Assembly (NCBI RefSeq): GCF_036323395.1
Contig: NZ_AP028907.1
Location: forward strand, 629,588-661,587
Reading direction: 5' to 3'
DNA: 32,000 nt
Origin: Pyrodictium abyssi
GTDB lineage: Archaea > Thermoproteota > Thermoprotei_A > Sulfolobales > Pyrodictiaceae
The position numbers and the translations under genes are program-made. The notes under the pieces are model-generated. The model ran no database searches. It had not been told where the DNA came from and was given only the letters and a program-made list of their open reading frames with translations. Shown piece after piece: positions 9,437 through 27,177 of the stretch (position 1 is its first letter; each line of letters begins with the position of its first letter).

Positions 9437-9745
9437 CTATAGCCGGAGCCTCCGCTTCAGAGCCTCCAGCGCCTCCCCGTGCTCCCGGCTCCACCCACCC
9501 TTCCTCTCCTTCTCGCCCAGCTTCTCGGCTATCCTGTCCCGCTCGAGGGCCGGCAGCGCCCCGGTTAGCGCCCGCCACGCCTGGAGCGCCTTACCCGCAG
9601 CACTCCTCGTAAAGCCCCGGCCGAGGAACCTCAGCGCCAGCAAAGCCTCCAACAGCGCCTCCAGGACACGGGCAGAAGCATAGCCCACTAGGCTCCTCTC
9701 CGGCTTGGGAAGAGGACGCTCCAAGAACTCCACGCCTACAGCCAT
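9437..9745 (-). CDS. PaREP1-family (HEPN-like) small protein, 102 aa
   Basis: Internal ATG at 9745 of the artefactual 355-aa ORF. The motif FTRSAAGKALQAWRALTGAL matches the PaREP1 core (N-A-A-G-K-A-F-Q-A-W-K-A). A TATA-like box lies about 37 nt upstream. Confidence 0.55.
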   Translation of the reverse strand: MAVGVEFLERPLPKPERSLVGYASARVLEALLEALLALRFLGRGFTRSAAGKALQAWRALTGALPALERDRIAEKLGEKERKGGWSREHGEALEALKRRLRL

Positions 9746-9776
9746 CCCGCACCCCTGGTATAGGCGGCGCCACAAC

Positions 9777-9786
9777 GCTATATACC
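9777..9786 (-). promoter_or_regulatory. TATA-like box for the PaREP1-like/pgi transcription unit
   Basis: The + strand gctatatacc reads GGTATATAGC on the - strand, 32-41 nt upstream of the ATG at 9745. Confidence 0.4.
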
Positions 9787-9910
9787 GTAGCCCCGGCCCC
9801 GCTGCACGCGCCAAGGCACCGGGAGTGAGACGGCACCGGACTGTGGAGGTACAGCAGAAGGGGGCACACCGTGGACCGTCAGAGGCCAGAGATAGGGGAG
9901 GGCTCTGCGG

Positions 9911-9987
9911 TGGTGGGCCCGGGGGGATTCGAACCCCCGACCTCCCGGTTATCAGCCGGGCGCTCCGCCGGGCTGAGCTACGGGCCC
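9911..9987 (-). tRNA. tRNA-Ile(GAU): tRNA-Ile, anticodon GAU, CCA encoded
   Basis: Manual fold of the reverse complement: acceptor GGGCCCG/CGGGCCC, D stem GCTC/GAGC, anticodon stem CCCGG/CCGGG with loop CT-GAT-AA, variable AGGTC, T arm GGGGG-TTCGAAT-CCCCC, discriminator A, CCA. Total 77 nt. Confidence 0.93.
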
Positions 9988-10016
9988 GCCCCGAGAGGCA
10001 AGGGACAATGCCCCGG

Positions 10017-10028
10017 GGATATTTCAGC
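10017..10028 (-). promoter_or_regulatory. TATA-like box for tRNA-Ile
   Basis: The + strand ggatatttcagc reads GCTGAAATATCC on the - strand, centred about 35 nt upstream of the tRNA 5' end. Confidence 0.35.
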
Positions 10029-10177
10029 ACTACGCCCAGGACCCAGAGGTCAGCCACAGCTCCAACACCGCCCAAAGGGGGACCCGCAGGAGCCGCAGGC
10101 ATGGTGGGCCGCGGGTGGAGGAGGAGAGGCCAAAAGAGCCAGAGTAGAGGGGCGGGGGCGCGCCCTCGCCCTCCCGA

Positions 10178-11275
10178 GCTCGTCCACTCTACGCTGAAGC
10201 CCACCACTACCAGCACAGTGTCGAGGAGCACGCCCTCCCCGGCCTCGTAGTACGCGGTCACACCGTAGTAGGCCGCTGTAGCGTTCTCGAAGCGCCACGC
10301 CTCCTCATCCACGGTTATAGTGTCCTCTGGCTGCAGCCAGCCACTAGGCTTGTCAAAGCCCACCCGGGCAACCTCCTGCCCAAGCACCAGGACATCGTAG
10401 CCGGCCACTATGGCCTCGTTGACGTACAATGTAGCCGAAGGTGGATGGAATATGTAGGCCAGCGTTATGTTAAAGAGCCAGTTGCCGTCCTCGTCCATGA
10501 ACACTAGTGTTACAGTGACGTTAGTCGCGCGGGTTATCCCGTCGCTTATCGTATTCCGCTATAATCCAGGACTGGGTATGGTTCAGAAAGCTATCATACA
10601 CATAGATGTCAGCAGGCCTATCGTCGTAGCCTACTACTAGAGATAGTTATTGTCACCGGTGTGAGCGTTGGACAGCTTTACCGTAATGCCGAATCATACC
10701 ACCACTCGACAAGCCTGTCAGAGACGTTCTTGTACACGTACTCTTGTCCGTTACTCTCGTTGCGTATAACAAGGTATATCTTTGCAACCTTGTTTACGAG
10801 TTCTTGCACTATACTGTAAGCTGTATAACCTAGCTCTGGCAGGCCCTGCGACTCCACACTACTTCTTATCGCATTCTCAATCCCTTCAATCTTAGTTTCA
10901 TTGCGGATTTGGTATACAGGCTGATTATTAGGGAACTCCCCAGACTTTTTCACTCGTGTATGTGCCTTTGCCCTCGAATTCTGCTGCTTCTCTTATTATT
11001 AGTATCAGGTAGCGGAAGTACTGTTTTAGCTCTTCGGCGTTCTCTAGCTTCACCTTAAACCACGGGTTCACAGAGACCATACCCTGGGCGTCGGAGGCAG
11101 CGCCTATGGCTAGCGGTTTCACGACCTCAAAGTGCACCGGCTCTTCCCGGGCACCCGCTAGGCCAAGGGCATAGAAGACACCAGGTGTGCCCGTGAGCAC
11201 TGCTGCAAAGCCTGCTAGCAGGGCGAGGGCGGCAGCCGAGGCCATAACGCCAGCAACGGGCGGGAGCATGACCAA
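10178..11275 (-). pseudogene. Decayed paralogue of the secreted Can-like family, closest to the 389-aa member
   Basis: Homology to 24913-26082 runs through at least four frames. These are 11275-10928 (signal peptide to ...YFRYLILIIREA), 10953-10678 (...VEWWYDS), about 10650-10550 (...YDSFLNHTQSWIIAEY) and 10560-10178 (...ISDGITRATNVTVTLVFMDEDGNW...YYEAGEGVLLD...VEWTS). The family's terminal TS-TAG reads TS-TCG here, so the frame runs on through the tRNA. Confidence 0.8.
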
Positions 11276-11367
11276 TACGCGCCACAGCCCCGAGGCTCGG
11301 TGGAGCGGGCAGAAACCGAGCGCAGATGTTCTGCACCAAGTGACGCATTAAATGGGCGAGGAGATGT

Positions 11368-11423: not shown

Positions 11424-11948
11424 TTAGCTGACGCTTAGCACCTGGAAGTTGAGGATCACTGGTAGGCTGTCGAACAGCATACCCTCCTTGGCCTCGTAGT
11501 AGGCTTCAACCTTTAGCTGTATCTTGTTAGTGCTACTGTAGTCGTCGTTGTCTAGTATTATGACTGCGCTGGGCTTCTTGAGGCTTAGCACAGCCTTGGT
11601 CTCCTCAACAGTACTAGAGGCATTGCTTGTGAGTACTAGCTGTAGGTACTTGAAGTATGGCCTTAGCTGGGCAGCATTGGCTAGAGTCACCTTTAGCTTT
11701 ACTACGTTCACGTCAGTATAGTTTATTATTTTTACGTAGCCCATATCCTTGTAGCCCTGTGCGCCAGCAGCAGGAGCTATGGTGTTGTCTAGGTGGCTCT
11801 CTACGTCTATTGGCTCTTGCACTGCTTGTGCTGTGCCGGTGGCGTAGAAGCTGTTGAGCGGGCTCTGGGTGGTGGCGAAGCCAGCTAGCAGGGCGAGGGC
11901 GGCAGCCGAGGCGATGATACCCGCTATAGCTAGGGTTGTGTACCTCAT
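11424..11948 (-). CDS. Secreted filament-subunit candidate, Can-like family (174 aa; cannula CanA/B/C-like by architecture)
   Basis: Signal-peptide-like MRYTTLAIAGIIASAAALALLAGFATT, then SPLNSFYATGTA, APAAGAQG, LANAAQLRPYFKYLQL, and a C-terminal YYEAKEGMLFDSLPVILNFQVLSVS-stop. Sequons NYT and NAS are present. The start at ATG 11948 is chosen by alignment with the paralogue; the ORF is also open to ATG 11960. Confidence 0.8.
   Translation of the reverse strand: MRYTTLAIAGIIASAAALALLAGFATTQSPLNSFYATGTAQAVQEPIDVESHLDNTIAPAAGAQGYKDMGYVKIINYTDVNVVKLKVTLANAAQLRPYFKYLQLVLTSNASSTVEETKAVLSLKKPSAVIILDNDDYSSTNKIQLKVEAYYEAKEGMLFDSLPVILNFQVLSVS
11830..11948. repeat. Copy 1 of a 119-bp near-identical segment covering the 5' end of Can-like genes
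   Basis: 116/119 identical to 22053-22171. Differences are g/a at position 6, a/t at position 53, and ATG versus GTG at the start codon. Confidence 0.95.
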
Positions 11949-12012: not shown

Positions 12013-12022
12013 CTTATAATAT
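12013..12022 (-). promoter_or_regulatory. TATA-like box upstream of the 174-aa Can-like gene
   Basis: The + strand cttataatat reads ATATTATAAG on the - strand, 65-74 nt upstream of ATG 11948. A similar element sits 55-64 nt upstream of the paralogue at 22171. Confidence 0.3.
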
Positions 12023-12104: not shown

Positions 12105-13301
12105 TTAGGGCCTGCAGTAGCCTGGGTCTGTGGAGTAGTCTAGTATCACCTTGAAGCGATAGGGTAGGCTCGTTGTACACGTGTCTATCCTTATCTCCGC
12201 TGTGAGCGGGACTGCGGGGTAGCTGTGGCCGCCGAGCTGTATTGCGACGCAGTCTCCCTCGTCTATTGTTATCTCGGCCTCGGGGTCGGAGGGCGTCAGC
12301 TCGCCCACCATGTTGTGGTTCGCGTCGTATAGTCTTACCTGGATGCCGCATACAGCGTGGTGGGGCTGTACGCCCTCTAGCTCTATCTCGAGGTCTATGG
12401 GCGTGTCTCTGCCGTCTAGGCAGCCGCAGTCCCGGTCGAGGATCACGTACAGCGTGTAGTTGGCTGCTACTATGCACCCGGATGGGCCGCAGCTTGTCTC
12501 CGAGCAGTCTGGGTAGATGCGCACATGCACATGTGTCCTGCCGTAGAGTATCCAGGCCTCGGGGCACTGCTGGGTGCTCGTGGTCGTCGTGCTTGTTGTG
12601 GTGCTCGTCTTTGTGGCCGTGCTGGTCGTAGTGGTGTTTACCGGCGGTGCTGTGACGGTTACCGTCGTGGTTACTGTCACCGTGGCTGTGCCGTTGGGCT
12701 GTGTCGTGGTTGTCGTGTAGGTGTACGTGTAGGTCTGGTTGTAGCTGGCTGGGCCTAGGTAGATTGTTCCCGTCTCCTGGTCGGCGACCGTCACTAGGAG
12801 TGGCACTGCTACTGTGGCGCTAGTGTTGCAGTCCCGTGGCTCGTAGTAGATCCTCGCCGCGAGGACCGCGTAGCGTGTTGTGCCGTTCTCTGCCCAGCTG
12901 CCTGCGTCGAGGACTATTGCTGCCGAGGGGTCCTGGAGCGACATGGTTGCGAGCAGCTCGTTGTTCACCGTGTTGAATACCTCGATGTGGAGCGCCCGGA
13001 GCCTGCCTGCCAGCATGTCCAGGTTGGCTATGGATAGTACTAGTCTCGCAACGTCGACTCCCGCTGCAGGCTCTATCCGGAGCCACTCGCCTACTTCTAG
13101 GCTCTGGGGGCCACATGCCCCGGGGGCTATCTGGAGGATAGGGGTCTCCAGTACCGATACCTTTACCGGCTTGTAGGGGGCGCTCACCTCGCCGGTGGCG
13201 TAGAACCCTGTGAGAGGGCTAACCGTGGTAGCGAAGACTGCCGCTAGGGCCAGGGCTAGCGTAGAGGCCAGTAGAGCTGCGAGGCCGAGACGGCGGTCCA
13301 T
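12105..13301 (-). CDS. Can-like family protein fused to a Thr-rich linker and a Cys-rich C-terminal domain (398 aa)
   Basis: MDRRLGLAALLASTLALALAAVFATTVSPLTGFYATGEV aligns with the family leader. SIANLDMLAGRLRALHIEV, SLQDPSAAIVLD and ARIYYEPRD align with family motifs. A Thr-rich linker (12570-12740) and a 10-Cys domain (12108-12564) follow. The start at ATG 13301 is chosen by alignment; the ORF is open to 13394. Confidence 0.75.
   Translation of the reverse strand: MDRRLGLAALLASTLALALAAVFATTVSPLTGFYATGEVSAPYKPVKVSVLETPILQIAPGACGPQSLEVGEWLRIEPAAGVDVARLVLSIANLDMLAGRLRALHIEVFNTVNNELLATMSLQDPSAAIVLDAGSWAENGTTRYAVLAARIYYEPRDCNTSATVAVPLLVTVADQETGTIYLGPASYNQTYTYTYTTTTTQPNGTATVTVTTTVTVTAPPVNTTTTSTATKTSTTTSTTTTSTQQCPEAWILYGRTHVHVRIYPDCSETSCGPSGCIVAANYTLYVILDRDCGCLDGRDTPIDLEIELEGVQPHHAVCGIQVRLYDANHNMVGELTPSDPEAEITIDEGDCVAIQLGGHSYPAVPLTAEIRIDTCTTSLPYRFKVILDYSTDPGYCRP
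12570..12740 (-). repeat. Low-complexity Thr-rich linker coding region
   Basis: Encodes YNQTYTYTYTTTTTQPNGTATVTVTTTVTVTAPPVNTTTTSTATKTSTTTSTTTTST. The ACN-codon periodicity is visible as gtgg/gtcg repeats on the + strand. Confidence 0.9.
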
Positions 13302-13403
13302 GGACGTGAGCACCCTCGCGGAGCGCCTAGGGGCCACGGCCCCCTCTGGGGCAGGGTTTGCTCTACCCCGGGGGCCCCGTGCTGGGCTCCACACAGCCAG
13401 ATA

Positions 13404-13530: not shown

Positions 13531-14688
13531 GTGCCTGGCATGCGGCTACCGCTACCGCTGCCCCGGCGTATCAAGATACGGCGCGAGCCCCGGCTAGCAG
13601 ACATCTGGATCATGCAGCGCTGGCCTATTGAGTCGCTCGACGCCTGCAAGATGGCGGACCCCCCGTTCGCCGACATAAACGGCGTGGGCGCTGTGCTGGA
13701 GAGGCTCGTGGACCAGGTCGTGGCGGGGCGGGGCGGCATATACATAATAGTCGGGGCCCCGGGCTCCGGCAAGTCCACGCTCCTCAAGACCCTGCATAAC
13801 CGGCTCCGCCGGGGCGGTATATACTCCCTCTACATGGATACCGCTGGGCGGAGCCTCGACGACTTCGTGGCTAGCCTCTGCTCTATCCTCGGCTGCCGCG
13901 AGGTCTCGCTCGACTCGCTCATGGAGAGGATACGCGAGAAAGCCGCGGAAGAGGGCACCATGGCCCTGCTCCTGGACGACATCGACCGCATATCCGGGGG
14001 CAACATGGACGATGTGGGCAAGCTGCTTACGGGCCTCACTGCTGTCCAGCGGGAGATCGGCCGCGGGCTCTTCATAGCCTTCAGCATGGCCCGTGAGAGC
14101 CTGGCAAGGCTCACCCTAGACCCCCTGATGAGGGGCCTCGTCAAGTCCTACATGGAGGTTATAGACCTTGACGAGCACCTCGTGAACTCCCCCACCGATC
14201 TCTCCAGGCTCCTCTACGCCCACTTCGAGCGGGCCCGGCCGCCCAACCCAGACCCCAAGGCCGCTGCTATACTCAACCGGTACCCGCTCCACCCTATCCG
14301 CGACCAGAACGTCATAAACATGCTCTACGAGATACTCGGCACAGATACGCCGCGCATGTACCTCGAGAAGGTGGACGAGCTGCTAAGGATAGCCATACGC
14401 GCCCGCTCACGCGTCGTGAGCATAGCACACCTAAACATACTAGCGAGGAGGCTCATCCAGGCCCGGCGCGAGGCTGTGCCCATTACCCAGATACAGGTCA
14501 TGCTGGTCCGCCGCTACGTGAACGGCCTGATAGCCGGCGGCCTCGTAGTGCTAGGCACAGTTGCCATAACCCTGGCGGCGATAAACCTAGTCCCGCCGGG
14601 CCTCAAGCTGCCCTACGTAGTGGTCGGCCTAGTGCTGATGCTCGCCGGTATACTGGTGCACATGAGGTCCATAGCTAGGCCGGGCTGA
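13531..14688 (+). CDS. Membrane-anchored P-loop NTPase (AAA_22/ORC-like ATPase domain plus two C-terminal TM helices)
   Basis: Walker A IIVGAPGSGKSTLLKTL and Walker B MALLLDDIDRI. The C-terminus has two hydrophobic helices, LIAGGLVVLGTVAITLAAINLV and PYVVVGLVLMLAGILVHM. The true start may be ATG 13612 or ATG 13651. Confidence 0.7.
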   Translation: MPGMRLPLPLPRRIKIRREPRLADIWIMQRWPIESLDACKMADPPFADINGVGAVLERLVDQVVAGRGGIYIIVGAPGSGKSTLLKTLHNRLRRGGIYSLYMDTAGRSLDDFVASLCSILGCREVSLDSLMERIREKAAEEGTMALLLDDIDRISGGNMDDVGKLLTGLTAVQREIGRGLFIAFSMARESLARLTLDPLMRGLVKSYMEVIDLDEHLVNSPTDLSRLLYAHFERARPPNPDPKAAAILNRYPLHPIRDQNVINMLYEILGTDTPRMYLEKVDELLRIAIRARSRVVSIAHLNILARRLIQARREAVPITQIQVMLVRRYVNGLIAGGLVVLGTVAITLAAINLVPPGLKLPYVVVGLVLMLAGILVHMRSIARPG

Positions 14689-14750: not shown

Positions 14751-15332
14751 GTGAGCGAGTACCTCAACGTAGTGGTACCGGAGGAGAGGGGCGGTATACC
14801 CCCCGCCCTGGTGGCGCTGGTAGCGCTAGCAGCCATAGTGGCCGCTGGGCTCAGCGTCTCTGGGCAGCTGCCGCGCTTCGCCGTCATCCAGACGACGAGT
14901 ATGGTCCCTACACTGGTTCCGGGAGACGTGGTGATGATAACGAAGGTTGACCCGATGTCGATCGATGTCGGCGACGTGATAGCCTTCAACCTTGTAGCCT
15001 ACGAGGTGGACGAGCAGGGGCGGCCCATCGACATGAAGGGCATCAAGATAACAGTGCACCGCGTGATAGAGAGGAAGATGATCAACGGCCGGCTCTACTT
15101 CCGCACCCAGGGCGATAACAACCCCGTGCCAGACCCCTGGCTCGTACCCGCCTCGGGCGTGCTGGGCAAGGCGGAGAAGGTTGCTAGCCTAGGCACCTTT
15201 GGCCTGGTACTGACCAACCCCATAGGCAGGGTGTTCGTGATAATGATAATGCTGTCGTCACTAGTCCTGCTGGGCAGCACTATGTGGAGCTATAGTAAGG
15301 GTATACGCGAGGATCTTGAGAACTACCTCTAG
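14751..15332 (+). CDS. Type I signal peptidase, archaeal/ER (Sec11/SipW-like, Ser-His) type
   Basis: Catalytic-Ser box IQTTSMVPTLVPGDVVMI, His box TVHRVIER and FRTQGDNNPVPDP box. N- and C-terminal TM helices are present. GTG start. Confidence 0.85.
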   Translation: MSEYLNVVVPEERGGIPPALVALVALAAIVAAGLSVSGQLPRFAVIQTTSMVPTLVPGDVVMITKVDPMSIDVGDVIAFNLVAYEVDEQGRPIDMKGIKITVHRVIERKMINGRLYFRTQGDNNPVPDPWLVPASGVLGKAEKVASLGTFGLVLTNPIGRVFVIMIMLSSLVLLGSTMWSYSKGIREDLENYL

Positions 15333-17429: not shown

Positions 17430-20400
17430 TCAGCCAGCCCCGGCGCGGGGGCCCGCGTAGTCGTCGCCGGCGGCCGGGGGGGCGGCTGTGGTGGCTGTGG
17501 CGTTCGCGGGGGTCACGTTGCCCGGTGCCGTGACGTTGGCTGGGGCTAGCTGGGCGCCCGGCCCCGCGGCTAGTACGCCGCTAGCACGGGCCAGTGTGAA
17601 GGACTCTCGGGCGCCGTCGGGCACGGCGCGCAGTACTGCCTCGTAGCTGGCCGTCGCGTTGCCCCTCAGCTGTATCTTCACCCTCATGGAGGCTATGTCG
17701 CCGGGCCGTAGCGCGTCAACCCTCATGACCGCCATGCTGGTGGTGTAGCTGCCCGGCTCGGCGTCGAGCACCTCTACCCCGCTGGGGAACTTTACGCTGA
17801 CAACCACGTTCCTGAGGTCTATCGAGTCCAGGTTCGCGGCGCTGACCTCTACTATGGCGCGGTCCCGGTACCTCTCCACCTCCTTGACCTCGAGGGCCAC
17901 GTGGGGCACCTTCACCCTCACCGGGACCGTGGCCAGCGTGTTGCCGTCGAGCCTGAGCACTATGTAGACCGTTGTCTCGCTCCCCAGCGGCGCGCCGGGG
18001 GAGACGTGTAGCGTAGCCCACCTGGTGGTGAACTCTCCGGGCTCAAGGTCCGCCCGCGTCGCCGGCAGGAAGAGCCTGGCTATCGAGTCGTTGCCGTTGA
18101 CCGGGACTATCTCCGCGCCCTCTATCCTCATACCAGAGGCCACGTCTATCCTCACGTCCACCTCGCTCCCGGGCGGCGCCGCGACGTAGCCCGGCGTCAC
18201 AGTGACCTCCACTGTGCGGCGGAGGAGCTCTAGCACTGGTATCCTGGCTACACGGTACTCCTTGATCAGGTACTGGCCGGTCTCGTCGTAGACCAGGAGC
18301 CTTGCGTCAAGCGTGTCCAGGGGCTCCAGCTTGACGGTGTCGAGGTTTACGCTTATGTCGAGCGTGCGGTGGCTCCGAGCCGGGAGCGCCACCGTCTCGG
18401 CGTAGTCGTATATCGTGCACGCCTTCACGTCGACGCAGTCGCCCTGCCCCTTGACGAGCACAAGCCGCGCTAGGAACACGGCGTCGCGGTCCTCTGGGTT
18501 GTAGAAGGACAAGCTTATGGTAAGCCCTCTCCTCGCTATGTCTACCTCCACGTCCTCTAGCCGGGGCTCCACCATGACGGAGCGTAGCTCCACGCCACTG
18601 GTGCTTGTTGCTATAACTTTGCCGTTCGGGTCGAGCACGTGTATGCTCATAGTGTAGACGCCGGGGTAGGCGGTCGGCGGCACCGGTATGTTGACCACGA
18701 AGCTAGCGCTGCCGCCCAGGGGCACCAGCTCCTCCCCGGACTCGGCCTCGCCCAGACCCTCTATCGAGACCCTGACCCTGAGCCGGGCGTCAGTGTTACC
18801 CGTGTTAGCCACCTTAACCTCTACGCGGAAGCTCTTACCCACCACCGGGAGGTCTAGCACACGCACCTCCTCCACGGTGGCAGAGACCACTGGCTCCACT
18901 GTCAGCAGGTTGTGGAGGCTCCAGGAGGCGTAGGGCATCCCCGCTATGTAGAGGACTGCGCGGGCGTCGTAGCTCCCTGCCGCGGCGTCGCCCGGGACCT
19001 GTATGGGGACCTGGACCAGGTTAATGCCGGGGAAGAGTGGCTCCTCAACGCTGTAGCTCCGGCCGAGCAGCTGTACCTCCAGCCGGCTCTGGACTGAGCC
19101 CTCGCCGTCCAGCCGGAGCTTCACCGAGACCAGGGCCTGGCCGCCGGGCTTCACGCTCCCCGGCGACGCGCTGTAGTCCTCCAGGGATATGCTGTACGAG
19201 ACTACCTCTAGCGCGGCCTCGGCGCGGGAGGCCTCGTAGAGGTCGTCGCCCCTGAACTCCACGGCGAGGCTGTGCCTGCCCACGCCGAGCCACGAGGTGT
19301 CGAACTCAACCACTGCCACGCCGTCTCGGCCGGTGCGGGCGCTGCCCACGAGCTTCCCGTCTACGTAGAAGCTCAGGGTGCGGCCCACGAGCGGGCCCCC
19401 GGAGACCCCGTCAACCAGCCTGGCCTCGACGTGGGCGAGGCTGCCGCGCGACACCACGAAGCTCTGAGCCTCTATCTTGCTCGGCCTCTTCAGCACCTCG
19501 ACTGTCTTGCTCTTGACGCCGGTTAGCCCCGTGTCGTCCACGACTGTGAGCGTGACGTTGTAGACACCGGGCTTCTCGAACACGTGGGTAACTATCGCGC
19601 CCTCGGCCACCGTGCCGTCGCCGAACTCCCAGCGGTACCCAGTGATGTTGCCGTCGGGGTCGTAGGAGAGGAGCCCGTAGAACGTGACGTTGACGCCCCA
19701 GTAGGGCTGCCGCGGCGAGAACCAGAACCCAGCGACCGGGGGCCTGCCCTCGACGCACCAGACCGGGCGCGAATCCAGCCAAGGCTCGTAGTACTGCCTG
19801 GGGTTAGGCCGCCCCTCAAGCCACGGCATCACTATAGGGCTGCCCTTGCCCTCCGGGTTGCCCGTAGCCCGGGGGCCCGAGGGGTCACCCCACCAGTTGT
19901 GCCCCGCGTAGACGTAGCCCTCCTCAACCTTCAGCCCGTACTCGGCGCCCTCCAGGCAGCTGTAGCTCACCACCGCGGTAGAGTCCACAACACTCTTCAC
20001 GTAGACCGCCTGGGGGCCCGAGACCCGGGAGTAGAGCACCTCTAGCCTCGCCCTGCCACCCACGCCGCCCTTCTCGCCGTCAATAATCAGGCTCTCCAGC
20101 TGGCACCTATAGATCCTCATCACGGTGGACTGGCCGTAGAGGCCCCAGTCCTCGCGCACCCAGTTATCCGCAATGCTCTCGCCCCGGACCAGAACCCTCC
20201 CCATAACGGTGTTGCTCGCAACAAGACTCGACTGGTCCAGGCCGCGGCCCGAGGAGGTGCCGTTGTAGAGCCCATAGCCGTGGATAGTGAGGCCCTCCAG
20301 CGTGGAGTCTGTGATGCTCATCCACGAGGATAGCAGCCCCTCAGGCCCCTCTACCACTACGCTGCCCAGCCTCACACGCTCCAGCACCAGGCTACTACGG

Positions 20401-21212
20401 AACAGCGCTGCGCCCTCCCCCGCGTAGCTCCGGTCTACCACCACGGAGAGCCCGGAGAACACGGAGTCGCTGATGCTTATCCGGGACTCGTAGACACCAT
20501 ACATGACCGCCGGCACTAGCTTGTAGCTCGTGACGGTGACAGTCGTGTTGCCGGTAGTGATGTTGTAGCGGATGGGCACCTTCACCTGCAGCCCGGTGGC
20601 GTAGGAGTGCACCACGAACTCCCCCGTGGCGTTGACGCGGCTCAAAGTTATCTCGGACTGGTACACCGCGCTAGTCTCGTTGCCCAGGCCCAGCGACTCC
20701 ACCCTAAAGTCGCCCACAATGGTCACGTTGTCCAGCGCCACCGTGGAGTTGTAGACGCTCCGGTAGGCCGCCTTGAAGGACAGCCCGCCACGTATAACAG
20801 AGTCCGTAAACGTCACGTTGGACTCCGTGAGCCCTGTAAACTCCAGGCCATCCTCGACAACAACGTTCTTGAACACCAGGACCGAGCCCGTCACAACAAG
20901 CGTGCCGCGCCCCACCAGTGTTACCGGGCTCCCCGGCTTACCCTCGGCAAGGATCACGCCACGGTCAACCGTGACCGTGACGCCGGGCGCGAATATCAGG
21001 ACAACACCGTCCTCTATCCGGACCTCGGCCTTAATCCGGATATCCCTCGTGATTATGTACGGGCTCCCCTCACGAGTCAACACAGTATTGACTATGATAT
21101 CGCGGTCGATAGGCGTAGGGCTCGCCTCAGCCCCCGCCGCGCCCCACACCCAGCCCGCCAGAGACACAAGGTACAGTACAAGGAGTATGGACACCAGTAG
21201 CCGCCTATACAA
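17430..21212 (-). CDS. Giant secreted surface protein: signal peptide, right-handed beta-helix region, PKD domain, multiple Ig/CARDB-like domains (1260 aa as encoded)
   Basis: Signal-like MYRRLLVSILLVLYLVSLAGWVWGAAGA. Repetitive beta-helix-type segments span aa 35-445 and end in HNWWGDPSGP. The PKD motif YRWEFGDGT...HVFEKPGVYNVTLTVVDDTG spans about 19494-19742. CARDB-like FRVEVKVANTGNTDA is present, with many N-x-S/T sequons and a C-terminal NVT/NAT/Thr-Pro tract. Confidence 0.85.
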   Translation of the reverse strand: MYRRLLVSILLVLYLVSLAGWVWGAAGAEASPTPIDRDIIVNTVLTREGSPYIITRDIRIKAEVRIEDGVVLIFAPGVTVTVDRGVILAEGKPGSPVTLVGRGTLVVTGSVLVFKNVVVEDGLEFTGLTESNVTFTDSVIRGGLSFKAAYRSVYNSTVALDNVTIVGDFRVESLGLGNETSAVYQSEITLSRVNATGEFVVHSYATGLQVKVPIRYNITTGNTTVTVTSYKLVPAVMYGVYESRISISDSVFSGLSVVVDRSYAGEGAALFRSSLVLERVRLGSVVVEGPEGLLSSWMSITDSTLEGLTIHGYGLYNGTSSGRGLDQSSLVASNTVMGRVLVRGESIADNWVREDWGLYGQSTVMRIYRCQLESLIIDGEKGGVGGRARLEVLYSRVSGPQAVYVKSVVDSTAVVSYSCLEGAEYGLKVEEGYVYAGHNWWGDPSGPRATGNPEGKGSPIVMPWLEGRPNPRQYYEPWLDSRPVWCVEGRPPVAGFWFSPRQPYWGVNVTFYGLLSYDPDGNITGYRWEFGDGTVAEGAIVTHVFEKPGVYNVTLTVVDDTGLTGVKSKTVEVLKRPSKIEAQSFVVSRGSLAHVEARLVDGVSGGPLVGRTLSFYVDGKLVGSARTGRDGVAVVEFDTSWLGVGRHSLAVEFRGDDLYEASRAEAALEVVSYSISLEDYSASPGSVKPGGQALVSVKLRLDGEGSVQSRLEVQLLGRSYSVEEPLFPGINLVQVPIQVPGDAAAGSYDARAVLYIAGMPYASWSLHNLLTVEPVVSATVEEVRVLDLPVVGKSFRVEVKVANTGNTDARLRVRVSIEGLGEAESGEELVPLGGSASFVVNIPVPPTAYPGVYTMSIHVLDPNGKVIATSTSGVELRSVMVEPRLEDVEVDIARRGLTISLSFYNPEDRDAVFLARLVLVKGQGDCVDVKACTIYDYAETVALPARSHRTLDISVNLDTVKLEPLDTLDARLLVYDETGQYLIKEYRVARIPVLELLRRTVEVTVTPGYVAAPPGSEVDVRIDVASGMRIEGAEIVPVNGNDSIARLFLPATRADLEPGEFTTRWATLHVSPGAPLGSETTVYIVLRLDGNTLATVPVRVKVPHVALEVKEVERYRDRAIVEVSAANLDSIDLRNVVVSVKFPSGVEVLDAEPGSYTTSMAVMRVDALRPGDIASMRVKIQLRGNATASYEAVLRAVPDGARESFTLARASGVLAAGPGAQLAPANVTAPGNVTPANATATTAAPPAAGDDYAGPRAGAG

Positions 21213-21478: not shown

Positions 21479-22171
21479 TTAGCCTACCTGCAGTACCTGG
21501 AAGTTGAGTATTACTGGTAGGCTGTCGAATAGCATGCCCTCCCTAGCCTCATAGAAGGCCTTGACCGTTAGTACAGCGAATGTAGCGTCATTGCCCATGC
21601 CATTGAATACGCCACTCTTAGTTATCTGCCAGCTGCCAGTTGCGTTGCCTATTTCTATCTTATCGCTGGGTGAACCTGGTACCCAGAATGTTACGTTTGC
21701 TGGTATGCTTGCAGCTGTCTCGTTCAGCTTAGCAATATTGAACAAGTCTTCAGCGTCAAGTATTATTACGGCTTTAGGCTTCTGTAGGGAGAGGACAGCT
21801 TTGATCTCTGAGTAGTTGCCTATAGCGGACTCGTTTGTGTTGAAGGCGCTTGTTATCTGTAGCTGTAGGTACTTGAAGTATGGCCTTAGCTGTGCGGCAT
21901 TGGCTATTTTTACTAGGAGCTTTACGTCGTTTACGTCGGCGCGTACTGGCACTAGCACAAAGCCCATGTCCTCGCTGCCCTGGGCGCCGGCGGCGGGGGC
22001 TATGTTGGTGTTGAGCTTGCTCACTACGTCTATTGGCTCGCTTACCGCCTCTGCTGTACCGGTGGCGTAGAAGCTGTTGAGCGGGCTCTGGGTGGTGGCG
22101 AAGCCTGCTAGCAGGGCGAGGGCGGCAGCCGAGGCGATGATACCCGCTATAGCTAGGGTTGTGTACCTCAC
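21479..22171 (-). CDS. Secreted filament-subunit candidate, Can-like family (230 aa)
   Basis: GTG start. The first 40 aa are identical to the 174-aa paralogue. Motifs APAAGAQG, IANAAQLRPYFKYLQL and a C-terminal FYEAREGMLFDSLPVILNFQVLQVG-stop are present. Five sequons: NES, NYS, NET, NVT, NAT. Confidence 0.85.
   Translation of the reverse strand: MRYTTLAIAGIIASAAALALLAGFATTQSPLNSFYATGTAEAVSEPIDVVSKLNTNIAPAAGAQGSEDMGFVLVPVRADVNDVKLLVKIANAAQLRPYFKYLQLQITSAFNTNESAIGNYSEIKAVLSLQKPKAVIILDAEDLFNIAKLNETAASIPANVTFWVPGSPSDKIEIGNATGSWQITKSGVFNGMGNDATFAVLTVKAFYEAREGMLFDSLPVILNFQVLQVG
22053..22171. repeat. Copy 2 of the 119-bp near-identical 5' gene segment
   Basis: See 11830-11948. Confidence 0.95.
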
Positions 22172-22225
22172 TTTTTACGCACCCCTACTCTGGCTCTGGT
22201 TCGTGTCTACTCCCGTTTCATGCAA

Positions 22226-22235
22226 CTTATATATT
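22226..22235. promoter_or_regulatory. TATA-like element in the divergent region between the 230-aa gene and the PP2C-like gene
   Basis: cttatatatt lies 55-64 nt from GTG 22171 (- strand) and about 55-65 nt from the candidate starts at 22287-22299 (+ strand). Confidence 0.35.
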
Positions 22236-22289
22236 GTTTCTCTGCGCTGTCAAGCTGGTATATGTGTAACGTGTGTTATTATTGGCTTG

Positions 22290-23162
22290 GTGCGGTGGGT
22301 GTTTAGGCTCCGGGCGGGGGGAGCGCTACGAGGGGCGCTGGCTGTGGCCTGGCGTGCCTGGGTAGCTGTATCCAATGCTGTCCACTTCGAGGATGATGCT
22401 GGGCTCTGGGTTGATGGGGACCGCGGCGCTGTGGCGGTGGCGGATGGGGTCTCGATGTCCCGGGGCGGGGGCGCCTCGTTCCTGGCCGCGTGGGGGTTCG
22501 CTGCGCTCTGCCGGGCCCTGCTGCCGGACTGGAGGGGGAGCCTGGCGGGGGCCGCGCAGCGGTGCCTAGAGCTGCTGGACCGCGCCGCCCGGGAGGCGCT
22601 GGCGCTCGACGCCGCGGCTGTGGCGGAGGCGAAGCAGCGGTACTACCGCGGCTGCGGCTCTCCCTGCACCCGGCCCCCGGGCCTCGCCGAGCTAGAGGCC
22701 CTGAGGCCCCTGGAGCCCGGGGGGAGGGGCGCCGAGGCGAAGCCGAGCTCGACGCTCCTCGCAGCGCTCCTGGGCCCCGGGGGCCGGGCCGCGCTGGTGC
22801 TAGCCGGCGACGGCGCGGTGGTAGCGACCACGGGGGGCCGGGAGGACACCTGGCTCCTCTGGGGCGCGCTGCCCCAGTTCTACGAGGGGAGCCGGGTCGC
22901 CCGCTTCCTGGAGGTCGGCGGCGGGCTCCGGGGCGAGCCGGTGGTGCTGGAGACCATCCTGCCCCGGGGCACCCTGCTAGCCCTGGCGACGGACGGTGTG
23001 GACCCCGCGGCGCTCGCCGAGGAGCTGGTAGAGCTGGCCAGGCGGGGCATCCCCGAGCCCGCCGCCGAGAACCCGGCCGGCTACCTGCTACGCCGCATAG
23101 AGGAGCGCACCGGGGGCCTAGAGGACGACGCCACCCTCGCGCTGGTGGAGTGGACGGGCTAG
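22290..23162 (+). CDS. PP2C-like (PP2C_2/SpoIIE-type) protein phosphatase
   Basis: AVAVADGVSMSRGGGASFLAAW is the first metal-binding D-G motif region. LLALATDGVDP and the near-C-terminal LEDDATLALVEW are also present. The upstream part of the 361-aa ORF (22077-22289) is antisense to the Can-like gene and was discarded. Candidate starts are TTG 22287, GTG 22290 and GTG 22299. Confidence 0.55.
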   Translation: MRWVFRLRAGGALRGALAVAWRAWVAVSNAVHFEDDAGLWVDGDRGAVAVADGVSMSRGGGASFLAAWGFAALCRALLPDWRGSLAGAAQRCLELLDRAAREALALDAAAVAEAKQRYYRGCGSPCTRPPGLAELEALRPLEPGGRGAEAKPSSTLLAALLGPGGRAALVLAGDGAVVATTGGREDTWLLWGALPQFYEGSRVARFLEVGGGLRGEPVVLETILPRGTLLALATDGVDPAALAEELVELARRGIPEPAAENPAGYLLRRIEERTGGLEDDATLALVEWTG

Positions 23163-23223: not shown

Positions 23224-24018
23224 GTGGCTGGCGCGGTGGACCGGAGGGCTCTCGGGGAGGCGCTGCTGGAGCTGCTTGAGGAGGACCGGGAGTTCCGCCA
23301 CGCTGTGATGGGGCTGCTGGGCTACCGCGAGGTACTGGAGAGGATAACCAGGCTTGAGGAGCGGTTCGCGAGACTAGAGGAGAGGTTCGCCAAGCTGGAG
23401 GAGGAGTTCCTGGAGCTGCGGAGGGCCCAGCAACGCCTCGAAGAGAGGCAGCAGCGCCTAGAGGAGAGGTTCCAGAAGCTAGAAGAAAGATTCGCAGAGC
23501 TAGAGGAGCACTTTGCCCGGCTGGAGGAGCGCTTCGCCAAGCTGGAGGAGGAGTTCCAGAAGCTAGAGGAGAGGCAGCAGCGCCTAGAGGAGAGGATGGC
23601 TAGGCTAGAGGAGGAGATGAGGGAGACGCGGAGGGTGCTGAACACGATCGCGCACAGGTTCGGGCTGCTCACGGAGACGGGGTTCCGCGAGGCCATGCGG
23701 TACGTGGTCGAGGAGGCTCTCGGCGCCGCCCGGGTCGAGAGGCTCTCCCTCCGGGACGAGGAGGGCCTAGTCTACGGCTACCCCGCCACCGTGGACATAG
23801 ACCTGGTGGTGAGGGACGGGGAGCACATAATCGTCGAGGTCAAGTCCAGGGTGGACCCGGGGGACGTGGCGGTCCTCGCCCGCAAGGCCAGGCTCTACGA
23901 GAGGGAGACCGGCACCAGGCCCCGGGCAGTGATACTGGGCGGCTACGTGGCCCCCTCGGCCTACGAGGCCGCAGCCCGGCTGGGCGTCACGGTCAGGCCC
24001 TACCTCAGGGAGGACTAA
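23224..24018 (+). CDS. Coiled-coil protein with C-terminal PD-(D/E)XK nuclease-fold domain
   Basis: GTG start. An approximately 90-aa heptad array (LEERFAKLEEEF...) is followed by ...ATVDIDLVVRDGEHIIVEVKSRV, the canonical D...E-x-K core. Confidence 0.65.
   Translation: MAGAVDRRALGEALLELLEEDREFRHAVMGLLGYREVLERITRLEERFARLEERFAKLEEEFLELRRAQQRLEERQQRLEERFQKLEERFAELEEHFARLEERFAKLEEEFQKLEERQQRLEERMARLEEEMRETRRVLNTIAHRFGLLTETGFREAMRYVVEEALGAARVERLSLRDEEGLVYGYPATVDIDLVVRDGEHIIVEVKSRVDPGDVAVLARKARLYERETGTRPRAVILGGYVAPSAYEAAARLGVTVRPYLRED
23344..23619 (+). repeat. In-frame 21-nt (heptad) tandem periodicity with an internal duplication of about 147 nt
   Basis: RLEERFAKLEEEF(L/Q)...QQRLEER occurs twice, at aa 50-78 and aa 99-124 of the 264-aa protein. 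Confidence 0.85.
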
Positions 24019-24075
24019 GCCCCCAGCGCCAGGATGCTATAGCTACGCTTATCCCTCTCCCCATCTCCTCTAGCG

Positions 24076-24747
24076 TTGTGGTGGAGAGGGGCCCCTACTG
24101 TGTCCCTGATAAGCCGGCTGCTGGAGGAGATGGACCGGGAGCCCGGGGAGGCCCGGAGGCTCGCAAGGAGGCTAGCCTCCGACATAGCCTCGGAGGAGAC
24201 GCTGCGCTCACTACTCCTAGAGGCCGTGGTCCGGGAGACGGCTACCAGGGAGGACCTGGAGCGGCTCGGAGACAGGCTAGAGGGGAGGATAGAAGCCCTA
24301 CACGGGGAGATGAAGACACTAGCCGCCAGGGACGAGCTGAGGGCGGAGGTACAGAGGCTGGAGGAGAGGATAGCAGGGGTAGAACAGAAGATAGAAGCCC
24401 TACGCGGAGAACTGGCGGAGACCAGGGAGAGGATGGCGACCAAGGAGGAGCTGGAGAAGCTGCGCGGGGAGATGAAGACGCTGGCATCGGAGGAGAGAGT
24501 GGCAAGGATAGAGGAGAGGATAGCAGGGGTAGAGCAGAGGATGGCGACACGGGAGGAGCTGTACGCCGTGAGGGAGGAGCTACGCGGGGAGATCCACCGT
24601 ACACGGGAGGAGCTACGGGCAGAGATAAGCCGGCTCCACAGCCGCCTCGACACCCTAGTCAAGTGGACCATAGGCCTACTCGTAACAGTCTGGGCAGCAA
24701 CACTAGCCGCAATGCTCACAGCACTAAGGCTACTAGCAGGAGGCTAG
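24076..24747 (+). CDS. Tail-anchored coiled-coil protein (DUF1640/CCDC90-like architecture), paralogue 1
   Basis: Repeated ATxEEL/ATREDL-initiated helical segments with an internal duplication: 24361-24390 versus 24511-24540 are 28/30 identical. C-terminal TM LVKWTIGLLVTVWAATLAAMLTALRLL. Start is TTG 24076 or GTG 24100. Confidence 0.7.
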   Translation: MWWRGAPTVSLISRLLEEMDREPGEARRLARRLASDIASEETLRSLLLEAVVRETATREDLERLGDRLEGRIEALHGEMKTLAARDELRAEVQRLEERIAGVEQKIEALRGELAETRERMATKEELEKLRGEMKTLASEERVARIEERIAGVEQRMATREELYAVREELRGEIHRTREELRAEISRLHSRLDTLVKWTIGLLVTVWAATLAAMLTALRLLAGG

Positions 24748-24861
24748 CCCCAGGAACACCCCCGTGCTTCTCTAAGGCGCTGACTCCGACGCCCCCAGCC
24801 CGAGCAGAACAAGGCCGTAGAAGAACCAAGAGGGGCCCAGAACCCCCCAGGAGGGGGAGGG

Positions 24862-24875
24862 GAAGGAAAAAGGCG
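24862..24875 (-). terminator. Oligo-T terminator candidate for the 389-aa gene
   Basis: A5 at 24867-24871 on the + strand. The - strand reads CCGCCTTTTTCCTTCCCCTCCCCC, 42 nt past the stop at 24913. Confidence 0.4.
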
Positions 24876-24912
24876 GTGTCTCTCGGGGGCCTCGGGCTGC
24901 CGCCCCCGCCGG

Positions 24913-26082
24913 CTAGCTGGTCTCCAGCACCTCTGCGTTGATGACTAGTGGTAGGCTGTCGAAGAGCACGCCCTCCAAGCCCTCGTAGAACACGGTGACA
25001 CCGTAGACAGCGGCGCGGCCGCCGTCAACCTTCCAGCTGTCCTCGTCAACCACCAGAGTATCCTCGGGCTGCCACCAGCCACTAGCCCGGTCAAAGCCTA
25101 AGGTGGCGCGAATATTGCCAAGCACAAGCACCGGATAGAGGCTACTCATGTACTCCTGAGCCTCAACTCTATCATAGACACCGTTTGTGTCGGTATCATA
25201 CCATGTCACATTCCACATCATGGTGAAGAGCACATTGCCTTCTTTATCAATGAACTCCAGTATCAATGTATAGTTGGTAGCTGCTATATCAGGCCATGTC
25301 CCTCCATCACTAACCTCGGCTATATATAAGCTTTCGTTCTCATAACTATCCCAGAAGAAGACACTAGGGTTATTATCGTAGAATATCCTTATGCTATAGT
25401 TTCCGTTGGGGTGTACAGGCTTCACTGAGAACCATAAACCCCGCTCAACAATATCATCAAGGCTTAAGTCTTCTACTAGTACTCGCCGACCGGGATTAGT
25501 TTCTGTGTTATTTATTAACGTCAGGTTAACATGGGCAACTTCTCCTAACAGCCTCCATGCAAATGCCGTAACGTTGACTCCTTCAGAAGCGTAGTTTGCT
25601 GAAACGTCGTAGATTTTCCCCGCCAATGTTGCGCTGTCTAGCGCATATCTGCCAAGGTTGTCAGGAGCACTTTCACTATCATTATCACTAGTCTCGATTC
25701 TCGGCGGGAGTTCCTCAAAGGGCGTTGGCCCTTTCCACTCCTCGTGTGCTTCCCGTATCTGTATGATGAGGTATCTGTAGTACTGTGCTAGCTGCTTGAT
25801 GTTCTCTAGCTCTAGGCGTATCTTTGTGGTGTTTACGTCGTTGTACCGTATGAGCTTGAGCCAGCTTGTCTCCTCTAGCTTGCCCTGTGCCCCCGCAGCA
25901 GGGCTTATGACGAGGTCCTTGAGCACCTGTAGGTCCACCGGCTCGCTAGTCGCCGCGCCGCCGCCGAGCCCGAGGAAGCCTGCTAGAGGGCTCCCCGTGG
26001 TGGCGAAGCCGGTTAGGAGGGCGAGGGCGGCAGCCGAGGCCACAACAGCCAGGAGAGCGAGAGTCTCGCGGCGGAGGCTCAC
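24913..26082 (-). CDS. Secreted Can-like family protein with large central insert (389 aa)
   Basis: GTG start. Leader MSLRRETLALLAVVASAAALALLTGFATTGSPLAGF, then SPAAGAQG, ELENIKQLAQYYRYLIIQIREA, and a C-terminal VFYEGLEGVLFDSLPLVINAEVLETS-stop. The central insert of about 230 aa is AT-rich and rich in N-x-S/T sequons. Confidence 0.85.
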   Translation of the reverse strand: MSLRRETLALLAVVASAAALALLTGFATTGSPLAGFLGLGGGAATSEPVDLQVLKDLVISPAAGAQGKLEETSWLKLIRYNDVNTTKIRLELENIKQLAQYYRYLIIQIREAHEEWKGPTPFEELPPRIETSDNDSESAPDNLGRYALDSATLAGKIYDVSANYASEGVNVTAFAWRLLGEVAHVNLTLINNTETNPGRRVLVEDLSLDDIVERGLWFSVKPVHPNGNYSIRIFYDNNPSVFFWDSYENESLYIAEVSDGGTWPDIAATNYTLILEFIDKEGNVLFTMMWNVTWYDTDTNGVYDRVEAQEYMSSLYPVLVLGNIRATLGFDRASGWWQPEDTLVVDEDSWKVDGGRAAVYGVTVFYEGLEGVLFDSLPLVINAEVLETS

Positions 26083-26427: not shown

Positions 26428-27177
26428 CTAGGGGGGCGCTGGATGCGCCGGCTGCTGGAGCACCATCTTGAGCAGCAGGCCTATGATGCCCAGGAGTATG
26501 GGCAGGTTGAACACCACGAAGAGCTTCGCGAGGAGGTCTAGCTTCGCCTCAACCCTCGCCAGCCTCTCCTCTAGCCGGGAGACCTCCCGGCGTAGCTCCT
26601 CCTTCGTGGCCAGCCTGGCTATCTCCGCCCGTAGCTCCTCCCGTGTCGCCATCCTCTCCAGCTTCTCTTCTAGCCTCGCTATCTCTCTCTGTAGCTCCTC
26701 CCGGGCGGCCATCCTCTGCTCTATCCCCTCTAGCCTCTCCTCTAGCCGGCGTATCTCCCCGCGTAGCTCATCCCTCACAGCGTAGAGCTCCTCCCTGGTT
26801 GCTAGGGCCCGTGTCTTTTCCTCGAGCTGGCTCCGGGTGGCGAGCCTCTTCATCCCCTCCTCAAGCCGGGCCACCTCCGCCCGTAGCTCTTCGCGGGTAG
26901 CGAGCTTCCCTATTTCCCCGCGTAGCTTTTCTAGCTCCTCCTTGGTGGCTAGGGCCTTCACCTCGCCCCGGAGCGTCTCCACGCGCTCCTCTACAGCGTG
27001 TATCCTCTCCCCGAGCCTCACCAGCTCCTCTCTGACCCCGGCCACGTCGCGGCGCAGAAGCTCCACGTCGCCCCGGGTCGCCGACTCCCGGGCAACCGCG
27101 AGCAGTAGCGCCCGCCGGAGCCGCCGGTCCCCGAGAAGCTTCTCAACCACAGCGTCCACGTCTACAGGCTGGGACAA
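26428..27177 (-). CDS. Tail-anchored coiled-coil protein, paralogue 2 (249 aa)
   Basis: Shares LATREELYAVRDELRGEI and repeated ATKEEL/ATREEL segments with 24076-24747. C-terminal TM LFVVFNLPILLGIIGLLLKMVL. Confidence 0.75.
   Translation of the reverse strand: MSQPVDVDAVVEKLLGDRRLRRALLLAVARESATRGDVELLRRDVAGVREELVRLGERIHAVEERVETLRGEVKALATKEELEKLRGEIGKLATREELRAEVARLEEGMKRLATRSQLEEKTRALATREELYAVRDELRGEIRRLEERLEGIEQRMAAREELQREIARLEEKLERMATREELRAEIARLATKEELRREVSRLEERLARVEAKLDLLAKLFVVFNLPILLGIIGLLLKMVLQQPAHPAPP

Follow-up and report, generated by a model that had tools for sequence, protein, structure and literature searches.

Probable recent gene conversion between the 5′ coding ends of two cannula subunit genes of Pyrodictium abyssi

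How do two paralogous genes that lie 10.2 kb apart come to share an almost identical 5′ coding end when the rest of their sequence has diverged? The question is raised by two cannula subunit genes in a 32,000-nucleotide (nt) stretch of Pyrodictium abyssi AV2 DNA (NZ_AP028907.1, positions 629,588 to 661,587 of the forward strand), hereafter the window. One encodes CanX; the other, a CanA-like gene in the same orientation, is called g2 here. We refer to their first 119–120 nt, codons 1–40, as the block. Coordinates are those of the window, lengths of products are in amino acids (aa) and dS is synonymous divergence.

11424..11948 (− strand): CanX gene, 174 aa (WP_338251948.1 / PABY_06890), the major cannula subunit of P. 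abyssi AV2
21479..22171 (− strand): g2, CanA-like cannula paralogue, 230 aa, with a GTG start and loop insertions (WP_338251966.1 / PABY_06990)
11829..11948 (− strand): putative converted tract in CanX, codons 1–40; 116/119 identical to the g2 copy, dS 0.063
22052..22171 (− strand): putative converted tract in g2, codons 1–40; counterpart of CanX 11829..11948

The product of the first gene is 100% identical over 174 aa to the CanX chain of PDB 9H8B (E = 9e-107), and the g2 protein matches both CanA (7UII, E = 1.2e-62) and CanX (E = 9e-64); WP_338251966.1 is named as a CanA-like protein in PMC12518558. From these matches, both are assigned to the Can family of TasA-superfamily jelly-roll filament proteins. 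An earlier sequence-only reading of this DNA had given the gene lengths as 174 and 230 aa, which is correct, and had reported that 11830–11948 and 22053–22171 are nearly the same. We found that exactly 3 of the 119 positions differ, the ATG/GTG start among them. On the plus strand the differences are G at 11835 against A at 22058, A at 11883 against T at 22106, and T at 11948 against C at 22171. In gene orientation, CanX and g2 differ at nt 1 (ATG/GTG), nt 66 (Ala22, GCT/GCA) and nt 114 (Gly38, GGC/GGT), so that two differences are synonymous and one lies in the start codon. With the GTG read as Met, the two genes encode the same 40-residue N terminus, MRYTTLAIAGIIASAAALALLAGFATTQSPLNSFYATGTA, as had been proposed. 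The block pair was recovered independently by a repeat finder. Identity falls sharply beyond it, as the same reading had noted, from 97.5% over nt 1–119 to 68% over the remaining 403 aligned nt, and stands at 0.73 in the first 30-nt window past the block. Upstream of the start codons CanX and g2 could not be aligned, and the two loci are unrelated there.

We examined the divergence at synonymous sites in a codon alignment of the eight family members for which DNA was available: CanX, g2, P0014 of P. occultum (L002; locus L002–L004) and five metagenome contigs (L005–L010). The Nei–Gojobori dS between CanX and g2 was 0.063 in codons 2–40 and 1.066 from codon 41 to the end, a contrast of about 17-fold that bears out the low synonymous divergence suspected for the block. 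Among codons for the same residue, 2 of 39 differed in codons 2–40, compared with 34 of 84 in the rest of the gene (Fisher p = 3e-5). A permutation test with a scan statistic, which covers all window positions and lengths and so allows for the post hoc choice of the window by eye, gave p = 0.001. In every other family pair, synonymous codon differences amounted to 25–49% in the block, a level matched in the gene body. When a conserved core of 13 codons within the block (discussed below) was left aside, dS was 0.56–1.97 in ten independent family pairs, whereas it was 0.05 for CanX and g2. Because other pairs are nearly saturated in the block outside the core, the drop in dS is specific to CanX and g2 and does not reflect a general constraint on the block.

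One conceivable explanation for such a pattern is purifying selection on the protein combined with codon bias. The N-terminal 40 residues are indeed the most conserved part of the Can family, and two-fold codons such as TTC, TAC, AAC and CAG are nearly fixed by bias. However, with 12 neighbouring genes as the codon usage reference, two copies in this genome would be expected to share a codon with a probability of only about 0.3 in the case of Ala, Leu, Pro, Thr and Val, and among other family members the block codons for these residues differ freely at positions where the residue itself is invariant. The synonymous differences of the other pairs likewise speak against this explanation, which we regard as extremely improbable. 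Consistent with the sequence-only reading, protein-level selection is thus not expected to give the pattern, and the synonymous-codon data reject its combination with codon bias.

A comparison with an orthologue separates the history of the block from that of the gene body. Colinearity between L005 and the window spans 1060 nt and takes in the 3′ end of a divergent 429-aa Can-like gene upstream of CanX, which makes L005 the CanX orthologue by position in a related Pyrodictium represented by a metagenome. In the gene body, L005 is closer to CanX (76% identity) than g2 is (68%); in the block, by contrast, the paralogue in the same genome is at 97.5% and the orthologue at 82.5–83%, a comparison that rests on this one orthologue from a metagenome contig. 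The region upstream of CanX is also colinear with L005, showing that the flanking DNA of the locus was kept. These data bear on the idea that CanX and g2 are very recent duplicates whose bodies diverged fast under positive selection while purifying selection fixed the N terminus. The bodies do differ by insertions and at 48 of 134 aligned residues, and surface-exposed loops are plausible targets of diversifying selection. Yet body dS is saturated (1.07), so the bodies are old, and this rules out a recent whole-gene duplication; in addition, the CanX body is closer to its orthologue in another genome than to g2, and the upstream regions are unrelated. We find accelerated divergence of young duplicates hardly credible.

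Paralogues that are closer to each other than to orthologues in one segment only, while keeping their own flanks, carry the textbook signature of non-crossover gene conversion, and the unrelated upstream regions exclude a crossover or a hybrid-gene origin. We therefore consider it likely that about 120 nt at the 5′ coding end were transferred between CanX and g2 by a recent ectopic gene conversion. The suggestion of the sequence-only reading that gene conversion or concerted evolution acts on the module of leader and first strand is thus supported by the dS contrast, the scan test and the L005 comparison. At all three positions where the blocks differ, one of the two genes has a state that is private to it with respect to the rest of the family (ATG and GCT in CanX, GGT in g2), which fits one clean event followed by three point mutations. 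As to the start codon itself, CanX has ATG where all seven other members with DNA, g2 included, have GTG at the aligned position; the ATG may be a change in translation efficiency specific to the major subunit.

Several points weigh against this conclusion. The comparators L005–L010 are short metagenome contigs and possibly chimeric. The AV2 DNA analysed covers two of about eight short paralogues, too few to infer the donor, the direction and the number of events; for donor and direction, L008, the g2 orthologue, gives no help either, being frameshifted and without its 5′ end. With a length of only 119 nt, the block yields a dS estimate that rests on about 39 codons. Codons 13–25 are conserved at synonymous sites across the family, and conversion alone is not a full explanation of the block. 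Finally, homogenization of paralogues by assembly or polishing is conceivable. In that case, reads of one paralogue would have been used to correct the other; multi-copy families are error-prone in this respect, and a neighbouring Can-like gene carries several frameshifts that represent either real decay or sequencing error. Against such an artefact, three differences were kept and the block ends exactly at unique flanks. Moreover, the mature N terminus of CanX was built de novo into a 2.3 Å cryo-electron microscopy map (PMC12518558), CanA of strain TAG11 has the same mature N terminus, and analogous shared N-terminal blocks occur in the distant AV2 paralogues P0003 and P0018. We judge the artefact very unlikely.

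The conserved core calls for a separate account. It occupies the following positions, as read from a per-column codon table:

11874..11912 (CanX) and 22097–22135 (g2) (− strand): nucleotide core, codons 13–25

Its codons are GCC TCG GCT GCC GCC CTC GCC CTG CTA GCN GGC TTC GCC. Across five lineages including P. occultum, core dS was 0.08–0.40 (mean 0.22), whereas it was about 0.8 in the block flanks and about 1.1 in the bodies, and a permutation test on invariant four- or six-fold residues gave p = 0.005–0.01. The core also keeps minor codons, namely TCG (6–13% of Ser codons) and GCT (13–22% of Ala codons). A 23-mer had been reported at four places, and it is exact at all of them (11220–11242, 11890–11912, 22113–22135 and 26018–26040); it extends to a 29-mer that is exact in three copies, including 11214–11242, and matches at 27 of 29 positions at 26012–26040, where shuffled sequences lead one to expect none. 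The exact 29-mer persists even in the decayed paralogue at 11214–11242. In an alignment, a 389-aa Can-like paralogue retained the core but not the wider block, and the core is missing from the divergent 398/429-aa gene. It is not kept in the Hyperthermus homologue, represented by one locus of a metagenome-assembled genome, where the amino acids differ too.

Such conservation raises the question of whether the whole 119-nt block is under functional constraint at the nucleotide level, as a 5′ mRNA structure, a signal for co-translational targeting, or an antisense or cis-regulatory element. The low dS of the core throughout the family (mean 0.22 vs about 1) and its minor codons TCG and GCT speak for constraint of this kind. 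Outside the core, however, the ten other pairs are divergent at synonymous sites, and even L005, the orthologue by position, reaches no more than 82.5% identity there to CanX. The 5′ 119–150 nt fold no more stably than shuffled sequences (z +0.34 to +0.95), and a search of the window against Rfam matched only a tRNA, with no match in the block. An antisense gene was also considered: the only plus-strand open reading frame (ORF) over the g2 block, at 22077–23162, reaches into it just by a spurious 5′ extension, from a TTG, of a PP2C-like gene, and nothing comparable exists at the CanX locus. Constraint on the whole block is therefore largely refuted and very improbable. Of the alternatives that the sequence-only reading had listed (mRNA structure, targeting and antisense regulation), what stands is some nucleotide-level conservation in codons 13–25; for the full 119 nt, dS, folding and Rfam all count against them.

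With gene conversion as the preferred account of the block, the core itself could stem from a constraint on particular codons in the hydrophobic region (h-region) of the signal peptide, from a cis-acting site common to the genes, or from a recombination anchor kept uniform by frequent micro-conversion. It is possible, though on balance doubtful, that the core (GCCTCGGCTGCCGCCCTCGCCCTGCTAGC...) is a functional nucleic-acid element common to Pyrodictium cannula genes and no mere consequence of the conserved protein sequence, either a recombination anchor or a shared cis-acting site in DNA or mRNA. We leave this reading open because of the roughly fivefold lower dS than in neighbouring codons, the minor codons, the copies in a decayed paralogue and the mosaicism of the family. 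Zalucki, Beacham and Jennings (Trends Microbiol 2009) reportedly described biased or rare codon usage in signal-peptide coding regions. Such a bias could explain why the 13-codon core, in the h-region, is conserved at its synonymous sites; however, it is a statistical tendency in Escherichia coli, whereas the Can core is an exact 29–39-nt string across paralogues and species.

Recombination is not confined to the CanX–g2 pair. The pairwise homoplasy index (PHI) test detected it in the family with p = 0.0005 for eight sequences and p = 0.001 for six. Among eight AV2 proteins, the nearest relative shifts by segment: for the signal peptide the pairs are CanX with g2 and P0003 with P0018; for residues 41–65 they are CanX with P0018 and g2 with P0003; and in the body segment the truncated P0018 pairs with g2. 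P0003 (PABY_00420) and P0018 (PABY_15020) lie far apart in the genome and have an analogous shared N-terminal block. Among the metagenome contigs, the gene bodies of L005 and L007 are nearly the same (dS 0.03); the two genes occupy different loci and are unlike at their 5′ ends. L006 and L010, at one and the same lactamase-adjacent locus, have the first ~140 codons in common and differ mainly in the C-terminal third. Unless the contigs are chimeric, this suggests that whole bodies and 3′ parts are also exchanged. Conversion thus appears to be recurrent in the Can family, giving mosaic genes. As to the loci of these contigs, L005 sits downstream of a homologue of the 429-aa gene and L007 downstream of a gene with a metallo-beta-lactamase fold; L006 and L010 are alleles, and the C-terminal third of L010 resembles the P0017/P0019 type.

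We also looked at GC content at four-fold third codon positions (GC3) as a possible signal of GC-biased conversion. In the P. abyssi-like short Can genes it was 0.63–0.67 in the block and 0.34–0.47 in the bodies, compared with 0.81 in neighbouring genes of the window; the contrast between block and body was absent in P. occultum, where the P0014 body has a GC3 of 0.90, and in the 429-aa gene. In all the genomes covered, the overall GC content of Can genes is lower than that of the surrounding DNA by about 10 points (52–53% vs 63.6% in the window, 63% vs 71% in P. occultum and 51–55% vs 55–63% in the metagenome contigs).

What the block encodes is a discrete part of the protein. The length of the signal peptide below is taken from PMC12518558 and from the mature start of 7UII.

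CanX 11874–11948, g2 22097–22171 (− strand): signal peptide, 25 aa, codons 1–25, as given in PMC12518558
CanX 11829–11873, g2 22052–22096 (− strand): start of the donor strand, 15 mature residues (TTQSPLNSFYATGTA) of a 19-aa donor strand as given in PMC12518558

Can proteins are described as having a 25-residue Sec signal peptide followed by ~19 mature residues that form strand A, the donor strand; this strand inserts into the neighbouring subunit, and loss of its first 10 residues abolishes polymerization (PMC12518558). Calcium-dependent polymerization into tubes has been demonstrated experimentally for CanX (ex vivo) and CanA (PMC12518558). The mature CanA chain in 7UII starts TTQSPLNSFYATG (TTQSP), aligned to residue 26 of CanX and g2. 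Both of our genes encode mature F9, Y10 and G13, which correspond to the aromatic P1 residue and the conserved central Gly described for the donor strand in PMC12518558, and precursor G38 (mature Gly13) is invariant in the family alignment. Published cannula subunits had been said by the sequence-only reading to have identical N termini, and a review indeed gives the first 25 N-terminal residues of CanA, CanB and CanC as identical (PMC4187195).

We propose the following course for the gene conversion. During repair by homologous recombination, a heteroduplex would have formed between the 5′ ends of CanX and g2, probably seeded on the invariant 29–39-nt core in the signal-peptide region. Its resolution without crossover would have left a short, non-reciprocal transfer. 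Upstream, this tract would not have passed the start codon, since homology ends there; downstream, it would have stopped near codon 40 at divergence that already existed. Later point changes would then have produced the ATG start from GTG and GCT from GCA at Ala22 in CanX, and GGT from GGC at Gly38 in g2. The event was presumably tolerated because the tract encodes a module that can be exchanged between subunits, made up of the Sec signal peptide and the initial 15 residues of the donor strand, and perhaps favoured because it would keep the donor strand of a minor paralogue matched to the acceptor groove of the major subunit. The donor strand of g2 is identical to that of CanX through mature residue 15; such a match might allow the g2 product to fit the acceptor groove of CanX. 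In Sulfolobus acidocaldarius, a hyperthermophilic crenarchaeon without MutSL, experiments have shown that recombination has a mode of conversion that is short-patch and unidirectional (PMC3367456). The short intervals transferred in that species are compatible with the ~120-nt tract seen here, although its system is transformation with added DNA, whereas our case is deduced from sequence and concerns paralogues on the chromosome of a crenarchaeon from a different order.

That archaeal paralogues can undergo gene conversion limited to one domain is well established (PMC4632066, PMC6053082). Such conversion likewise involves non-reciprocal homogenization of one part while the rest diverges, leaving paralogues within a genome closer than orthologues. 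The case described here differs in its much shorter tract (~120 nt), in what is apparently a single recent event, and in affecting a dispersed multigene family of surface filaments. Cassette recombination of Neisseria pilins between pilE and pilS also involves a filament subunit family with a conserved 5′ end and a variable body, whose segments are exchanged by gene conversion. Unlike that system, CanX and g2 are not silent cassettes, it is the conserved end that is copied and not the variable part, and there is no known initiating element. Programmed variation of the cassette type (pilE/pilS-like) was rejected for the present pair since both genes are complete ORFs with their own upstream signals and the exchanged part is the conserved one. 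Each has a start codon, a Shine–Dalgarno-like GGTG motif and, upstream, a TATA-like box:

12013..12022 (− strand): TATA-like box (ATATTATAAG), 65–74 nt upstream of the CanX start, read from the sequence
22226–22235 (− strand): TATA-like box (AATATATAAG), upstream of g2, read from the sequence

CanX and g2 each seem to have their own, unrelated promoter region.

Closest to our case is the published work on the cannula subunits themselves, CanA, CanB, CanC and CanX of P. abyssi, since these are the same proteins and our first gene is CanX itself. After earlier studies (Rieger 1995 and Mai 1998, as cited in PMC4187195; Sleutel et al. 2025, PMC12518558), what is on record for the Can proteins includes identical N termini, the 25-aa signal peptide, the donor strand and 15 paralogues, 11 of them in two clusters (PMC12518558, PMC4187195). 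These papers deal with proteins only, and the terms 'gene conversion', 'recombination' and 'duplication' are absent from PMC12518558; the near-identity of the DNA, the dS contrast and the mosaic histories are added by the present analysis.

The window holds five Can-like loci in all: CanX, g2, the divergent 398/429-aa gene, a disrupted gene and the 389-aa gene. The last three are as follows.

24913..26082 (− strand): Can-like paralogue of 389 aa that contains a large insertion (phmmer E = 1.8e-33 to CanX)
10179..11272 (− strand): disrupted Can-like gene with an open N-terminal part at 10928–11272
12105..13301 (− strand): divergent Can-like gene whose product combines a Thr-rich linker with a Cys-rich C-terminal domain (phmmer E = 3e-17 to CanX)

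In the disrupted gene, the sequence for the middle and the C-terminal part is found in other frames, interrupted by stop codons, and the family C terminus runs to 10179 with no stop codon after it; either true decay or homopolymer sequencing errors may have caused the disruption. The gene (region 9437–11347, − strand) is of the large-insertion type and related to the 389-aa gene. A 355-aa ORF at 9437–10504 is a chimera that runs through a tRNA-Ile (GAT) at 9911–9987 into a PaREP1-family gene. The divergent gene is 398 aa long from an ATG at 13301, or 429 aa from a GTG at 13394, and had no Pfam match. Its long Thr-rich linker (TYTYTYTTTTT...TSTTTSTTTTST) is probably O- or N-glycosylated, and its Cys-rich C-terminal domain is 81% conserved at the DNA level in L005 (L005 1–361).

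Other genes of the neighbourhood include an archaeal-type signal peptidase I at 14751–15332 (+ strand; RefSeq WP_338251954.1, 'signal peptidase I'), which scores 77.7 bits against NCBIfam TIGR02228 (cut-off 51.85) and matches Pfam S26. Its position is within the cannula gene cluster: the 429-aa Can-like gene is 1.4 kb away and CanX ~2.8 kb away, and an AAA/STAND-like ATPase (13531–14688) separates it from the 429-aa gene. The neighbourhoods of can genes have been said to lack dedicated signal peptidases, and TasA/AbpX homologues usually adjoin one (PMC12518558). Between CanX and g2, a gene at 17430–21212 (− strand) encodes a 1260-aa protein with PKD, Big_3_5 and DUF11 domains that is probably a large surface protein. 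The genes flanking the 389-aa gene (23224–24941 and 26428–27177) contain 21-nt-periodic repeats and encode coiled coils rich in L-E-E-R motifs; one of them, at 23224–24018 (+ strand), combines DUF3782 with a PD-(D/E)XK nuclease domain.

The finding is, on well-supported grounds, a new instance of an ordinary, known process in a newly characterized filament family. Cannulae are heat-stable protein tubes whose subunits polymerize by inserting their N-terminal donor strand into a neighbour. Exchange of the leader and donor-strand module at the DNA level explains the long-noted identity of cannula N termini with no need for selection on each site. A further suggestion is that minor paralogues remain able to assemble with CanX, which bears on whether cannulae are ever heteropolymers. 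Phylogenies of Can proteins should be built segment by segment. If the core were a cis-acting site in DNA or mRNA, it would imply co-regulation or co-targeting of all can transcripts; if it were a recombination anchor, the 15 paralogues would keep swapping 5′ modules and bodies, a shuffling system for an extracellular matrix.

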